NCBI GenBank assembly: GCA_016212105.1
Contig: JACRHJ010000028.1
Coordinates: 11,689-75,688 of the forward strand
Length of the DNA: 64,000 nucleotides
DNA from: Nitrospirota bacterium
GTDB taxonomy: Bacteria > Nitrospirota > JACRHJ01
Direction of reading: 5' to 3'
Below, piece by piece: positions 2,470-53,651 of this stretch; positions within the stretch are counted from its first letter, which is position 1; the number at the start of each line of letters is the position of its first letter. The position numbers and the translations under genes were made by a program. A model generated the notes under the pieces. That model had not been told where the DNA came from. It saw only the letters and a program-made list of their open reading frames with translations, and ran no database searches.

Positions 2470-2830
2470 TACACATGGTGTCATTGCGAGGAGTCCCGCG
2501 CTTTGCGGGACGACGCGGCAATCCCAGCCTTTAAGAACTGAGATTGCCACGCTTCGCTCGCAATGACAGGCAAAACAAGGGCCGACACACTGAACGGCCC
2601 CAAGTTCCGTCATTCCCGCGAAGGCGGGAATCCAGGAAGTTCGCAATCTGACGTCAAATTCCTGGACCCCCGCCTTCGCGGGGGTGACGTCAAAAGATAA
2701 AGGCAGGGCCGACACACGGGTCGGCCCCTACATAAAAGCAGGTCACTCCACGGAGCCTGCCCTGAGCCCCGGCTTTATGCATGCCGTGGTGAAATCCGCT
2801 GAAGGGGACGGGATGACGACCTGCCTTTAA
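2470..2830. repeat. intergenic palindromic-module cluster R1 (G+M composite, D', A, Q, D, E containing L)
   Basis: Modules: 2478-2524 gtcattgcgagg..gcggcaatc; 2538-2568 its inverted short partner; 2609-2640 gtcattcccgcgaaggcgggaatccagg; 2659-2689 ttcctggacccccgccttcgcgggggtgac; 2701-2740 aggcagggccgacacacgggtcggcccctacataaaagc. Confidence 0.9.
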
Positions 2831-2879
2831 CCTCATTAAAGTTTCTGGGCCGCCTCTTTTCAAAGAGGCGGGACTTTTC
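2831..2879 (+). repeat. T element copy 1 (CCTCA..AAAGTTTyTGGGCCGCC-T-rich loop-GGCGGGAC)
   Basis: cctcattaaagtttctgggccgcctcttttcaaagaggcgggacttttc. A 10-bp stem is followed by a T-rich tail. It lies at the distal end of the rpoD-downstream repeat cluster. Confidence 0.8.
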
Positions 2880-2908
2880 TTCTGCAAGTGTTTGGAGGTT
2901 TATTTCAG

Positions 2909-4264
2909 ATGGCCGAGATTACGCCCTTCAGGGGCCTGAGATACGACATAAAGAAGCTGGGCGGCGTCGAGCCGTTGGGCGGCATCGCGCCGCTGGTCGC
3001 CCCGCCTTACGACGTGATTTCGCCCGCGCTGCAGGAGGACCTGTACGCTCGTCACGAGAAGAACGTGGTGCGCCTCGATTTCGGGAAAAAGTACGACGCG
3101 GATACGGACGCGGACAACCGCTACACGCGCTCGGCGGGCTACCTGAAGCAGTGGTTGGCAGACGGGGTATTGGTGCGGGAGGGGAGGCCGTGCCTCTACT
3201 TTTACGAGGTCTCGTACAAGACCCCGTCAGGTACGCCCAAGACGATGTCCGGGTTCATCTGCATGCTCAGGCTGGAGGAGTGGAGCAAGGGAGTGGTGCT
3301 GCCGCACGAGAGCACGCTCAAGGGGCCGAAGGCGGACCGTATGGAGCTGATGAAGGCTACCGGGGTGTCCGCGAGCCAGATTTTTTCCCTGTACTCGGAT
3401 AAGGCGTGTACGGTCACCGGAGCGATGAAGAAGGCGATTGGCGGGCGGCCTGCCGACGAGGAGGCCGCGGACGACGACGGGGCGGTCCACAGGCTCTGGG
3501 TTGTGGAGGACCCGGCCGCGATAGAGACGGTCAGGCGCGACATGATGGACAGGCCGGTGTTCATCGCCGACGGGCACCACCGCTACGAGACCGCGCTCGC
3601 CTTCCGCGACCACTGCCGTGCGAACGGTGGTGGAGACGGAAAAGAGACGTACAACTACGTCCCGATGTTCCTCGCCAACATGGAGGAGGACGGGCTGACC
3701 GTCCTGCCGACGCACCGCATGATTAAAGACGCCGGAGGGCGCTCGCTGGAAAATATACTCGCCGAGGCGGAGAAGTTCTTCGACGTGCGCGCGTTCTCCT
3801 TCACGCCAGCGGACGAGGGCAGGGTGCGCGCGGACTTTCTTGCAGCCGTACAGGGAGAGAGCAAGCGCACCAACGCCTACGGCTTCTATTTCGGCCGGGG
3901 CTCGTCGTATTATCTCCTGACGCTGAAGGACGTGGACCCGCTGGTCGAGACGCTCCGCTGCCAGCGCTCCGAGACCTACTGCAAGCTCGACGTGTCCATA
4001 CTGCACAACCTGGTCATCGAGCGCGTCCTCGGGATAAACACCGAGAAGATCTCGCAGGACCAGCCTGTGCAGTTCGAGAAGGACGGAGACAGGGCCATCG
4101 GCCGCGTGGCGTCCGGCGAGTTCGCCATGTGCTTTATCCTGAACGCGACGAAGGTGCACGAGGTCAAGGAAGTCGCGCTGGCAAGGGAGATAATGCCGCA
4201 GAAGTCGACGTACTTCTACCCCAAGCTGCTTACGGGGCTGGTTATCGCGCCGCTGGTGGACTGA
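2909..4264 (+). CDS. DUF1015 family protein
   Basis: The ORF is 2888..4264. I prefer the ATG at 2909 (MAEITPFRGLRYD), which is the typical DUF1015 N-terminus. Other family-like motifs are PPYDVIS, LPHE, FIADGHHRYETALAF and LPTHR. Confidence 0.85.
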   Translation: MAEITPFRGLRYDIKKLGGVEPLGGIAPLVAPPYDVISPALQEDLYARHEKNVVRLDFGKKYDADTDADNRYTRSAGYLKQWLADGVLVREGRPCLYFYEVSYKTPSGTPKTMSGFICMLRLEEWSKGVVLPHESTLKGPKADRMELMKATGVSASQIFSLYSDKACTVTGAMKKAIGGRPADEEAADDDGAVHRLWVVEDPAAIETVRRDMMDRPVFIADGHHRYETALAFRDHCRANGGGDGKETYNYVPMFLANMEEDGLTVLPTHRMIKDAGGRSLENILAEAEKFFDVRAFSFTPADEGRVRADFLAAVQGESKRTNAYGFYFGRGSSYYLLTLKDVDPLVETLRCQRSETYCKLDVSILHNLVIERVLGINTEKISQDQPVQFEKDGDRAIGRVASGEFAMCFILNATKVHEVKEVALAREIMPQKSTYFYPKLLTGLVIAPLVD

Positions 4265-4265
4265 T

Positions 4266-4400
4266 TAAGTTGTAGCTGCCCGATTCATCGGGCTGTTTTG
4301 TAGGGCGCGACGCCCTCGGCGCGCCGTATAAGGCAGGGCCGACACGCGGATCGGCCCCTACATAAAAGCAGGTCCCTCCACTTCGGTCGGGACGACAAGG
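4266..4400. repeat. cluster R2 (H, K, D, E)
   Basis: Modules: 4272-4293 gtagctgcccgattcatcgggc; 4300-4325 gtagggcgcgacgccctcggcgcgcc; 4331-4369 D; 4368-4397 gcaggtccctccacttcggtcgggacgaca. Confidence 0.9.
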
Positions 4401-4408
4401 TGCATACA

Positions 4409-4453
4409 CCTCACAAAAGTTTTTGGGCCGCCTTTTTACCAAAAAGGCGGGAC
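4409..4453 (+). repeat. T element copy 2
   Basis: cctcacaaaagtttttgggccgcctttttaccaaaaaggcgggac. Confidence 0.8.
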
Positions 4454-51060: not shown

Positions 51061-51070
51061 TAAAAGCAGC

Positions 51071-52261
51071 CTATTTCTTGTCCGTCAGGCTGACCAGCCC
51101 CGGCAGTTCCTTGCCTTCGAGGAGCTGGAGCGACGCGCCGCCGCCGGTGGATATGAACGACATGTTCTCGGTCTCGCCGGCCTTGTGGACGGCGAGGTCG
51201 GTGTCGCCGCCGCCGACTATGGACAGCGCGTAGGAGTCCGCGACCGCGTGCGCGACGGCCATCGAGCCGCGCGAGAACGCGTCCATCTCGAAGACGCCCA
51301 TCGGGCCGTTCCATATTATGGTCTTGGCGTTTCCGAGCGCCTCGGAGAAGAGCCTGACCGAGGCCGGGCCGATGTCGAGCGCCTTCCAGCCCGCTGGTAT
51401 CTCCTGCGAGGTGACTATCTTGGTCTCCGCGCCGGGTGACATGCTCTGGGCGACGACGCAGTCCACCGGCAGGTAGAATTTTACCCCTCGTTCCTTAGCC
51501 TTGTCGGCGATGCGCAGCGCGATGTCGAGCATGTCCGGCTCGACCAGCGAGTCGCCGACCTCGTGACCCATCGCCTTGAGAAAGGTGAAGGCCATGCCGC
51601 CGCCTATGATGACCTTGTCCACCTTGTCCTGGAGGTTCTCTATCACCCCGATCTTGCCGGAGACCTTCGCGCCGCCGAGTATTGCCACGAACGGGCGGAC
51701 GGGGTTGGCGACCGCGCCCTGGAGGTAGTCCACCTCTTTTTTCAGCAGGAAGCCGGCGACGGACTTCAATACGTGCTTCGTGATGCCCGCGGTGGACGCG
51801 TGCGCCCTGTGCGCCGTGCCGAAGGCGTCGTTGACGTAGTAGTCGCAGAGACGCGCGAGCGCCTGCGCGAAGAGGTCGTCGTTTTTCTCCTCGCCCTCGT
51901 GGTAGCGCAGGTTTTCGAGCAGGGCGACGTCGCCGGGCTTCATCGCGGCGACCGCGGCCTCGGTCTCCGTGCCGACCGCGTCGGGCAGGAACGCGACCTC
52001 GCGGTCGAGCAGCCTCTGGAGCCTCTTGGCGACGGGCAGGAGTGAGTACTTGGGGTCCTTCTTCCCCTTGGGGCGGCCCAGGTGCGAGGCGAGTATTATC
52101 TTCGCGCCCGCGTCTATCGCGTAGTTTATCGTCGGGAGCGACGACCGGATGCGGGTGTCGTCCGTTATGTTCATGTTCTCGTCGAGCGGGACGTTGAAGT
52201 CCACGCGGATGAATACCCGCTTGTCTTTCAGGCCCAGGTCTTCGATAGTCATCTTGTCCAT
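51071..52261 (-). CDS. pgk: phosphoglycerate kinase
   Basis: 396 aa with [25 protein letters not shown] and [14 protein letters not shown]. Confidence 0.97.
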
Positions 52262-52289
52262 GTCTGGCTCTCCTTGTGCGGTAAACTGG

Positions 52290-53300
52290 TTAGCGCTTCA
52301 GCTTGCCGGAGATGAACAGGACGAGGTCCCTGACGCGGCAGGAGTAGCCCCACTCGTTGTCGTACCAGGACATCACCTTCGCCATGTTCCCGTCCATGAC
52401 GGACGTCAGCTTGGAGTCCAGTATCGAGGAGTGCGGGTTGCCGTTCAGGTCAATCGAGACGAGCGGCTCGTCCGAGTACTCGAGTATGCCCTTGAGCGGG
52501 CCCTCGGCCGCCTCCTTCATATTCGCGTTTATCTCGTCCGCGGTGGTGGCCTTCTTCAGCTCGACGACGAGGTCCACTATCGAGACGTTCGGGGTCGGGA
52601 CGCGGATGGCGAGGCCGTCCAGCTTGCCCTTCAACTGCGGCATGACGAGGCCTATGGCCTTCGCCGCGCCGGTGGACGTCGGTATCATGGACATCGCGGC
52701 CGAGCGTGCGCGGCGTAGGTCCTTGTGCGGCGCGTCCTGGAGGCTCTGGTCGGCGGTGTAGGCGTGTATGGTGGTCATCAACCCTTTTACGATGCCGAAG
52801 TTGTCGTCGAGCACCTTGGCGAACGGGGCGAGGCAGTTGGTCGTGCAGGAGGCGTTCGATATGATGTTGTGCTTGGCATTGTCGTACTCGGCGTCGTTGA
52901 CGCCCAGGACTATTGTCACGTCCGGCTCCTTCGCGGGCGCGGATATGATTACCTTCTTTGCGCCGGCCTCGAGGTGCTTGGACGCGCCGGCGCGCTCGGT
53001 GAACCGGCCGGTGGACTCGATTACGACGTCCACGTTCAGGTCCTTCCAGGGGAGAAGCGCCGGGTCCTTCTCGGCGTAGACCTTGAGCGGCTTGCCGTCT
53101 ATGACTATGGTGTCGCCCTCGGCCTTTACCTCCGCCTTGAAGTTGCCGTGCACCGAGTCGTGCTTGAGCAGGTGCGCGAGCGTTGCGGCCGAGGTCAGGT
53201 CGTTTACGGCCACTATCTCGATGTCCTGTACGCCGTAAGACGCCCTGTAGACGTTCCTGCCTATCCTGCCGAACCCGTTGATTGCTACCCTGATTGCCAT
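52290..53300 (-). CDS. gap: glyceraldehyde-3-phosphate dehydrogenase
   Basis: The start [17 protein letters not shown] is at 53300. The active site is [21 protein letters not shown] is also present. The 40 upstream codons of ORF ..53420 are not part of the gene. Confidence 0.97.
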
Positions 53301-53542
53301 TGTTGTAAATCCCCCTTTCAGGATTTTAAGGATTGTCAGGTGAATTACCCGTGGTAAAAAGCGTGGACGCCGGACGTCTCCGACCGGCACAACCTGTGAA
53401 ATATACAAAATCCGCGCCAAAAAGTCAAAGACTATTAGACGGGCTGGCCCGCCAGCCCCCTGTTTTTAGAAGAAAGGGTTTCAGCAGGGCATGCGTGTAA
53501 TTATGCCAGATAAAGCGGGAAACGTAAAGGCGGGGGGATAAT

Positions 53543-53613
53543 TGTCGCCCCGTGCCTGACACGGTGCCCAGGAATTAATCAACTTCCTGGATTCCCGCTT
53601 TCGCGGGAATGAC
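53543..53613. repeat. cluster R21 (B inverted, A inverted)
   Basis: Modules: 53543-53574 and 53587-53613. Confidence 0.9.
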
Positions 53614-53651
53614 GGTGTTTACCGTGCCCCGCACTATTTTGAACTTTTCTC

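Follow-up and report, generated by a model that had tools for sequence, protein, structure and literature searches.

Why should the spacers between core genes of a bacterial chromosome be packed with short hairpins of many kinds when some of the same spacers in related genomes are only 13-16 bp long? The question is raised by a 64-kb stretch of an uncultured Nitrospirota bacterium (GenBank assembly GCA_016212105.1, contig JACRHJ010000028.1, positions 11,689 to 75,688 of the forward strand), hereafter the window, in which intergenic arrays are built from repetitive extragenic palindromes (REPs) headed by the tetranucleotides GTAG or CGTC. An earlier note, made from the sequence alone, had described six GTAG families as a REP mosaic of the type mobilised by REP-associated tyrosine transposases (RAYTs, also called TnpA-REP, enzymes of the HUH/Y1 class). 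We consider it probable that these spacers have been colonised by non-autonomous hairpin repeats of both the GTAG and the CGTC type, the GTAG units being spread by RAYTs encoded elsewhere in the genome.

Two superfamilies of hairpin repeats in the intergenic DNA

An unbiased scan of the window for perfect stems of at least 7 bp with loops of 3-12 nt found 6.4 hairpins per kb of intergenic sequence and 0.98 per kb of coding sequence. Short-word searches for generic hairpins and k-mers were overwhelmed by chance matches in GC-rich coding DNA, and scans for perfect stems and frame patterns took their place. Among the 138 tetranucleotides directly 5' of intergenic stems, GTAG occurs 14 times, CGTC 11 times and CTGG 10 times, with about 0.5 expected for any one tetranucleotide, while the coding hairpins of the window show no tetranucleotide preference at the head. 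GTAG and CGTC are the tags that define two REP superfamilies (Di Nocera et al. 2013, PMC3733652). The third word, CTGG, is CCAG, the tail of the window's CGTC units, read on the opposite strand, and the tail consensus of CGTC units in the 2013 paper is CCA (PMC3733652).

Curation yielded 39 GTAG-type units of 22-35 nt with 6-9 distinct stems, spread over 13 of about 20 intergenic arrays. The head is conserved once all copies are compared (26 GTAG, 8 GCAG and 5 degenerate), as the earlier note had supposed, and the six families that it listed were recovered within 1-2 bases of the positions it gave. Nineteen units lie on the plus strand and 20 on the minus strand; the window includes neither an origin nor a terminus of replication. 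All fall in the 10.8 kb of non-coding DNA and none in the 53.2 kb of coding sequence, in line with the note's description of the copies as intergenic; one unit touches an uncertain GTG start, and the TAG stop codon of glgA (36099-36101) is furnished by the GTAG head of the unit at 36098, a donation previously described for GTAG REPs (PMC3733652). A conserved tetranucleotide at the foot, an imperfect palindrome of 20-40 nt with a preserved stem and many extragenic copies are found together here. REPs are defined by a GTAG that stands directly at the foot of a GC-rich hairpin and by the presence of many such copies in extragenic DNA (PMC3733652, PMC6006769).

The stems of all six families are present, but the families are not all distinct, since D, I and R are variants of one frame, GTAG-GGGC-NNNN-loop-NNNN-GCCC. 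Both R and the unit at 47733 are forms of D in which the loop is longer. The pattern GYAGGGGC-N14-GCCC has 15 matches in the window where shuffled sequences give 0.06, and the frame of family C is matched 5 times where 0.64 is expected. In families C, D, I and R and in the single stems, the stem foot has GGG at its start and CCC at its end, giving three G-C pairs, and family H is a double-foot REP of the form GTAGCTGCCCGA-TTCA-TCGGGCAGCTAC. Within family C and within family I, the copies are near-identical and have unrelated flanks.

The GTAG families are real but form the smaller part of the mosaic. Interleaved with them between positions 2479 and 53614 are about 49 CGTC-type units (tag CGTC or TGTC) in at least seven families, which outnumber the GTAG units. 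The commonest, B1, has the form (C/T)GTC-ATTCCCGC-GAAA-GCGGGAAT-CCAGG, and GTCATTCCCGCGAAAGCGGGAATCCAGG is an example that matches the published CGTC-1 type, including Neisseria dRS3 (PMC3733652). A pattern search with the CGTC frame gave 12 matches against 0.23 expected. Eleven of them are B1 or B6 units, which carry the CGTC/TGTC tag, a stem of 8-9 bp starting with AT, a loop of 4-5 nt and a CCA tail.

Together with a few other palindromes, the two types make up 20 arrays that hold about 100 modules and take up about 4.2 kb, which is roughly 39% of non-coding DNA (Table 1), close to the 21 clusters, about 100 modules and roughly 4.5 kb counted by hand in the earlier note. The majority of arrays are found downstream of genes, where the spacers are tandem or convergent, and four lie in divergent spacers. 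Short palindromic repeats in clusters could also suggest a CRISPR array, integron attC sites or a family of structured RNA genes, yet the arrays have no regular repeat-spacer period, mix a dozen or more families in both orientations, and carry no cassettes or open reading frames (ORFs) between units. An Rfam scan of the window gave no match at the gathering score, and no tRNA or tmRNA genes were found in it. We give these other repeat systems almost no credence.

A small further family of palindromes consists of runs of C and G (TCCCCCTTT-N3-AAAGGGGGA and CCCTCTCCC-N5-GGGAGAGGG) and bears neither tag. Similar palindromes occur in the relative L084 (567-626, 3557-3665).

Conservation of the GTAG hairpin

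For the 26-nt frame, we aligned 22 distinct units, of which the window supplied 19 and other genomes three. The stem positions are paired in 97% of cases, with compensatory changes in four of the eight pairs, and the observed covariation score was reached by none of 500 shuffles. When the partner position was slid by 1-3 columns as a control, pairing fell to 30-49%. Changes compatible with G-U pairing are also present in the stems. The hairpin structure of the GTAG units is under constraint.

GTAG families beside and inside RAYT genes of other genomes

Neither tblastn with E. coli RayT nor a profile hidden Markov model built from 120 RAYTs and E. coli RayT detected a RAYT or Y1 transposase in the window, as the earlier note had also reported. 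Little can be concluded from this, as a genome typically has a single RAYT gene for each of its REP families (PMC6006769). The note's further proposal, that the architecture is of the RAYT type, gains support from other genomes, in which families C and D are tied to RAYT genes.

A search of species-representative genomes with the D pattern, a 26-mer with four degenerate positions, returned at least 82 stretches from metagenome-assembled genomes (MAGs) whose labels cover many phyla; the GC content of these stretches is 35-71% and their flanks are unrelated. Among the D matches listed, two loci held another window family, in one copy each. In a Bacteroidales contig of 36% GC (L028), D units lie on either side of an ORF of 171 residues with a match to Pfam Y1_Tnp (E = 1.4e-8). 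Most homologues of this RAYT carry one or several inserts of the VGADLRVCP type, which are D-type units. At locus L017, a REP pair precedes the RAYT gene (2409-2963) and a D unit lies in frame just after the HUH motif.

A C/H pattern searched in a metagenome collection returned at least 120 stretches. All C/H matches listed are C or a covariant form in which GCGA/TCGC replaces GCAA/TTGC, and the only other window families in the C loci listed are a few B1-type CGTC matches. RAYT-like ORFs occur in 8 of the 120 C loci listed, and in most of the eight a C-type unit lies beside or inside the ORF (for example L199, 6482-7252; L151, 488-1372; L087; L164). The peptide VGAQFIAP, the in-frame translation of C, is found in 105 of 120 homologues of one C-locus RAYT. 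The in-frame REPs of RAYT genes stand just after the HUH motif, in some cases in five or six copies, and are read as peptides such as VGAQFIAP...GAMNRAPT or VGADLRVCP (proteins P0121-P0360), and single RAYTs have inserts resembling family I (P0186) and the stem at 50991 (P0185).

These features point to one group of enzymes. REPs with three G-C foot pairs or a double foot go with TnpA-REP subclass 2.4, equivalent to RAYT group 4; in this subclass REPs lie in frame between the HUH and Tyr motifs of the tnpA-REP gene, and its patchy distribution over many phyla is consistent with horizontal transfer (PMC6006769). The window families have such feet (the G-C triplet in C, D, I and R, the double foot in H), and in-frame copies of C and D occur in RAYTs of other genomes. 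Judged by the form of their feet, the window's GTAG units are of the 'canonical long' and 'double foot' types, both of which go with subclass 2.4. We had considered REPs in frame inside RAYT genes as a new feature, and rejected this because they are already described for the subclass (PMC6006769).

The earlier note had called so many interleaved GTAG families unusual. Genomes with several families are documented, and to that extent the claim does not hold, but none of the 202 D- or C-bearing loci listed from other organisms contains three or more window families. Among 2.9 million viral contigs, pattern D had no match and pattern I had one, so phages are no evident vector. A literature search found nothing relevant on REPs in Nitrospirota, and the repeat strings gave only primer-like chance matches.

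One phylum label is probably misleading. D units in contigs of 'Methanosarcinales archaeon JL_US_07_21' (L047, L061, L063) appeared to place the family in an archaeon. When these were compared with contigs of Anaerolineales MAGs (L038, L045, L076), L061 was 91-93% identical over kilobases, while L063 had only a 79-nt match; coverage of the three contigs is 0.25-0.47x. The identity of L061 and the very low coverage make a binning error the probable source of the archaeal label, and we rejected the archaeal case. Other evidence for a spread across phyla still stands, namely the range of base composition, the unrelated flanks and the published distribution of subclass 2.4. The mislabelled contigs, together with the shortness of many RAYT-bearing contigs (1-3 kb), could be taken as signs that the mosaic itself, or the wide distribution of its families, results from mis-assembly or mis-binning of metagenomic reads. 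We find this very improbable: gene order across the arrays matches that of relatives, the arrays are bounded by intact housekeeping genes of uniform third-codon-position GC (about 0.87), the same families recur in 20 separate spacers, and the flanks in other genomes range over 35-73% GC and hold unrelated genes. Conserved gene order and array anatomy are our grounds for setting aside artefact, CRISPR arrays and integron sites alike.

In seven loci (L003, L038, L045, L047, L061, L070, L079) the D unit sits in a conserved non-coding context of about 45 nt before and about 40 nt after it (TTCAAACCTGCGGGAGGTTAGG...GGTGCTTAATGGAGGC, D unit, GATTTAATAA...AAATCCGCTTGGTC), with upstream genes that differ between some loci. 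Rfam gave no match on these seven loci.

Expansion of spacers compared with relatives

The window has 61% GC and about 87% at third codon positions, and is core chromosome, with rpoD, a DUF1015 gene, dciA, crp, the pyruvate kinase gene (pyk), nadA, an AcrB pump gene, glgA, rho, smpB and pgk. Its RpoD is 79-81% identical to the best matches from other organisms, the few named ones of which are labelled 'Nitrospirota bacterium', and 60-62% identical to RpoD of Manganitrophaceae and Nitrospiria; by this measure the host is an uncultured Nitrospirota lineage.

The gene order dnaG-rpoD-DUF1015-dciA-crp is common to the window, L084/L085 (RpoD 81% identical) and L086 (78%). In L084, the rpoD/DUF1015, DUF1015/dciA and dciA/crp spacers measure 16, 13 and 123 bp, whereas in the window they measure 450, about 200 and 280 bp and are filled with repeats. 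The expansion is specific to this lineage and took place within what was probably an operon. No GTAG-type unit was found in the 20 kb scanned from each relative. These regions hold a few CGTC-type units and a differing AT-rich palindrome with a 14-bp stem, and the window's doublet at 53544-53614 is 93% identical over 72 nt to a doublet in L084. Other Nitrospirota MAGs carry single D units, at times adjoining a B1 unit.

The AT-rich palindrome of the relatives (GTTACTTTCTTTTC-N4-GAAAAGAAAGTAAC, stem 13-14 bp) lies in the kinds of spacers that hold GTAG/CGTC arrays in the window. A low-GC island in the window (16550-18400; 47% against 61%) codes for a DUF6932 protein that has a nucleotidyltransferase-like region (16930-17379), and it also gives a weak SUKH_5 match (17395-18327). 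It holds no GTAG or CGTC repeat unit and was probably acquired horizontally.

Composites, nested insertions and roles in place

Some combinations of units are fixed and recurrent. The window has three copies of a composite, D(-)-B3(-)-B7(-), that measures about 140 nt. All three share one orientation and stand directly upstream of a gene (DUF1015, dciA, glgA), and the B3 loop of one copy contains an insertion of 55 nt; B7 is a CGTC-tagged 10-bp hairpin, CCGCCTTTTT-ACC-AAAAAGGCGG. A C or I unit followed by an inverted B4 recurs three times and B1-B2 heterodimers four times, heads outside being common among CGTC heterodimers. In several CGTC- or D-type hairpins the loop is exactly occupied by a module of about 30 nt (CCCCGGCTTT.GCAT.CCGGGG...), here called P, or by another insert, and the uninterrupted forms occur elsewhere in the window. 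Hairpin loops seem to be preferred insertion points.

Such placement could mean that the hairpins are retained mainly for local functions (termination or attenuation of transcription, protection of mRNA 3' ends, binding of DNA-structuring proteins), with mobility secondary or absent. The location of most arrays downstream of genes, the constant position and orientation of the D-B3-B7 composite and the G-U-compatible stem changes agree with this, as do the roles proposed in the REP literature (PMC3733652). In the rpoD-crp arrays (2400-5300), terminator-like sites, among them some D units with a T run after them, are only modestly enriched (6 against 2.1 expected); in other Nitrospirota MAGs, the sequence after D units is TTTTTTAT. 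A consensus scan of the same rpoD-crp arrays, covering two D-B3-B7 copies, found no sigma-70-like promoter. Function in place leaves unexplained, however, how a dozen or more sequence families originated and spread, why the relatives make do with spacers of 13-16 bp, and why the same 24-26-mers surround or interrupt RAYT genes of unrelated genomes; some arrays, moreover, lie in divergent spacers. As the whole explanation we judge it improbable, although roles in place may be compatible with colonisation by mobile repeats.

Origin and spread of the arrays

Under the explanation that we favour, colonisation of the spacers by GTAG and CGTC repeats, HUH/Y1 RAYTs encoded elsewhere would bind the folded single-stranded hairpin, with the 5' GTAG as the guide for cleavage, and would cut and rejoin REPs, probably at the replication fork. 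REPs and REP composites would thereby spread into spacers already holding REPs; stems would co-vary by family, loops would take further insertions and multi-unit composites would be copied whole. GTAG as guide and the cutting and rejoining of single-stranded hairpins are established for E. coli TnpA-REP (cited in PMC6006769). We infer that RAYTs exist in this genome and act in trans on the window copies. The GTAG units are predicted to be mobile from the expansion of spacers relative to relatives and from near-identical copies with differing flanks.

Several points weigh against this explanation. For this genome the RAYT search covered only the 64-kb window, and families K and H and the three single stems yielded no RAYT link. 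Orientation is mixed (19 plus, 20 minus), and the units do not form the regular inverted doublets of classical REPINs. For CGTC REPs the literature knows neither a transposase nor a mode of spread (PMC3733652), which leaves the mosaic's larger part with no demonstrated mobilising enzyme. The evidence for recent movement is indirect.

The arrays could instead be relics, their RAYTs since lost, that persist or grow by duplication, recombination, gene conversion of composites and replication slippage. Five of the 39 units are without a GYAG head, whole composites of 70-140 nt recur as units, the window has no RAYT, and loss of the REPtron by deletion is reported for many E. coli strains (PMC3733652). 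Against this, 64 kb without a RAYT says little about the whole genome, and the near-identity of C and I copies with unrelated flanks indicates either recent copying or strong constraint by a binding protein. We regard a relic origin as unlikely.

A more far-reaching form of the RAYT explanation would make this genome an extreme REP 'sink', in which CGTC units ride in GTAG-bounded composites moved by subclass-2.4 RAYTs, and would ascribe near-identical 24-26-nt REPs across phyla to horizontal spread, not strictly vertical descent. The recurring composites (D-B3-B7, C or I with B4, B1-B2 heterodimers) are what this proposal draws on; taken jointly, its parts remain speculative, and we doubt that all of them hold.

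Table 1. Coordinates of repeat families, arrays and related palindromes (window numbering unless a relative is named; strand in brackets)
Feature	Position	Content or context
GTAG family C	5016, 13622, 36470 (+); 50181 (-)	three copies identical, one with 1-nt deletion
GTAG family I	20239, 34410 (+); 13728, 47909, 50281 (-)	
GTAG family D	20283, 36253, 43186 (+)	also 11 inverted copies; one long-loop copy
GTAG family K	4300, 36364	
GTAG family H	4272, 13694, 36406 (+); 9589, 36439, 43225 (-)	
GTAG family R	5185, 36177	
Further single GTAG stems (3)	9557, 36098, 50991	
CGTC-type examples	2609-2640, 36143-36170, 45786-45818, 49154-49186, 53580-53614	
Array, rpoD/DUF1015 gene	2479-2886	CGTC-type 2479-2525 (+, nested inner hairpin), 2543-2568 (-), 2609-2640 (+), 2655-2689 (-); D 2579-2604 (-, degenerate head), D 2706-2731 (-), B3 2738-2826 (-, 55-nt loop insertion), B7 2838-2880
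Array, DUF1015 gene/dciA	4269-4464	H 4272-4293 (+), K 4300-4325 (+), D 4336-4361 (-), B3 4368-4396 (-), B7 4408-4464
Array, dciA/crp	4969-5219	B4 4969-5005 (+), C 5016-5039 (+), B4 5055-5087 (-), D 5113-5138 (-, GCAG head), R 5185-5219 (+)
Array, divergent spacer, pyruvate kinase gene/fn3-domain gene	8033-8236	CGTC-type 8033-8058 (+), 8070-8100 (+), 8120-8148 (-); double-headed CGTC-type 8173-8199; degenerate D 8211-8236 (-, head GTTG)
Array, convergent genes	9443-9700	poly-C/G palindrome 9443-9463, I-like 9486-9511 (+, GTGG head), I variant 9524-9549 (+), single stem 9557-9582 (-), H 9589-9610 (-), truncated B2 + P-module composite 9611-9697
Array, convergent genes	13550-13831	B4 with P module in loop 13550-13612 (+), C 13622-13645 (+), B2 13660-13693 (+), H 13694-13715 (+), I 13728-13753 (-), D 13763-13788 (-, GCAG head), B1 13797-13831 (-)
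Array	20239-20405	I 20239-20264 (+), D 20283-20308 (+), B5 pair 20327-20362 (+) and 20376-20405 (-)
Single CGTC-type unit	21720-21748 (-)	GTCATTCCGAGCGAAGTCGAGGAATC
Array	25388-25500	poly-C/G palindromes 25388-25444; B1 25469-25500 (+)
Array	26951-27046	B3 26951-26980 (+); B4-like 27017-27046 (-)
Array, upstream of glgA	34298-34582	B2 34298-34332 (+), B1 with P module in loop 34342-34402 (+), I 34410-34435 (+), D 34450-34475 (-, GCAG head), B3 34482-34511 (-), B7 34526-34582
Largest array, 14 units	36098-36626	single stem 36098-36130 (+), B1 36143-36170 (+), R 36177-36211 (+), B6 36219-36252 (-), D 36253-36278 (+, head GTCA), B2 36284-36318 (-), B1-like 36333-36356 (+), K 36364-36389 (+), H 36406-36427 (+), H 36439-36460 (-), C 36470-36492 (+), B4 36510-36541 (-), D 36558-36583 (-), B2 36593-36626 (-)
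Array, downstream of rho, convergent genes	43112-43290	B4 43112-43145 (+), palindrome 43154-43179, D 43186-43211 (+, GCAG head), H 43225-43246 (-), D 43265-43290 (-, GCAG head)
CGTC-type heterodimer	45742-45818	B2 45742-45775 (-), B1 45786-45818 (+)
CGTC-type heterodimer, divergent spacer	47056-47135	B1 47056-47090 (-), B2-like 47102-47135 (+)
Array	47733-47983	D with ~30-nt loop insertion 47733-47781 (+), CGTC-type composite with P 47795-47850 (-), double-headed hairpin 47871-47893, I 47909-47934 (-), B4 47950-47983 (-)
CGTC-type heterodimer, divergent spacer upstream of smpB	49154-49224	B1 49154-49186 (+), B2 49190-49224 (-)
Array, downstream of smpB	49832-50344	B5 composite 49832-49878 (+), B4-like 49888-49920 (+), B1 with P module 49977-50034 (-), B2 with loop insertion 50043-50102 (+), B3 50136-50164 (-), C 50181-50204 (-), B4 with loop insertion 50213-50272 (-), I 50281-50306 (-), degenerate D 50319-50344 (-)
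GTAG-type tandem pair	50991-51057 (-)	single stem 50991-51016 (GTAGGGGCGGCCCCCTGTGGCCGCCC); D variant 51032-51057 (GCAG head)
CGTC-type heterodimer, divergent spacer	53544-53614	B2 53544-53576 (+), B1 53580-53614 (-)
D(-)-B3(-)-B7(-) composites	2700-2886, 4330-4464, 34444-34582	
Loop-nested repeats	2738-2826, 13550-13612, 34342-34402, 47733-47781, 49977-50034, 50043-50102, 50213-50272	
C/G-run palindromes	9443-9463, 13864-13890, 15376-15399, 25388-25444, 25512-25537	
AT-rich palindrome, relative L084	2807-2836, 5760-5791, 8178-8209, 13670-13701, 13739-13770	
AT-rich palindrome, relative L086		about 10 sites

Comparison with known REP systems and significance

The window holds a real REP mosaic that resembles arrays of bacterial interspersed mosaic elements (BIMEs) and neisserial intergenic mosaic elements (NIMEs), and its kind is already known. 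The closest counterparts of its GTAG units are the REPs of subclass 2.4 (Quentin et al. 2018; RAYT group 4 of Bertels et al. 2017), with which they share the GTAG/GYAG foot, extragenic multicopy occurrence, pairing-preserving variants, donation of TAG stop codons, the G-C triplet foot (C, D, I, R) or double foot GTAG...CTAC (H), and, in other genomes, the positions of C and D beside RAYT genes and in frame between the HUH and Tyr motifs. The window differs in that its units are mostly singletons within mixed mosaics, that no RAYT accompanies them there, and that the host lineage lies outside the published surveys.

For the CGTC units, B1 resembles Neisseria dRS3 in its 8-bp stem starting with AT, 4-nt loop and CCA tail, and, as in the literature on CGTC REPs, no transposase can be assigned. 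NIMEs likewise form large intergenic mosaics interleaved with other repeat families. In contrast, the window has at least seven CGTC families, where the survey of Di Nocera et al. (2013) recognised four in all species together. Several of the window's CGTC families have modules nested in loops, and the units stand in fixed composites with GTAG units.

E. coli BIMEs are similar as extragenic clusters of several REP types with conserved linkers between co-directional or convergent genes. BIMEs, however, consist of three REP types (Y, Z1, Z2) in strict alternation with defined linkers and protein-binding sites, whereas the window mixes a dozen or more families from two superfamilies with no regular alternation, so that the likeness is one of layout only. 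The Stenotrophomonas maltophilia GTAG elements (SMAGs; GTAG-6 to GTAG-9) provide a case of several GTAG families in one genome, but they are mostly single units or one-family dimers, and long arrays mixed with CGTC units are not reported for them. The density of REPs in the window is far above the densities known for E. coli, Pseudomonas or Stenotrophomonas. Species with several families generally carry family-specific RAYT genes, and coexistence of the GTAG and CGTC superfamilies in one genome is described (PMC3733652). REPs, BIMEs and NIMEs, multi-family genomes, GTAG and CGTC coexistence, stop donation and REPs inside RAYT genes are thus already published; the novelty lies in the host lineage, in the density and in how many families single arrays combine.

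Arrays of this kind also affect annotation and assembly. They yield spurious ORFs, and the long ORF calls for glgA, dciA and pyk pass through the 5' arrays and thereby acquire false N-terminal extensions. Metagenome assemblies are probably broken by such arrays.

REPs are among the commonest non-coding repeats of bacteria, and how they spread is only partly understood. The present case shows the degree to which intergenic DNA can fill, from 13-16 bp in relatives to 200-450 bp here. With both superfamilies standing in fixed composites beside essential genes, the lineage offers a natural test case for whether there is a RAYT for each GTAG family and whether CGTC units are co-copied with GTAG units; the fixed association of the two in composites is the one feature that could make the spread of CGTC REPs testable.

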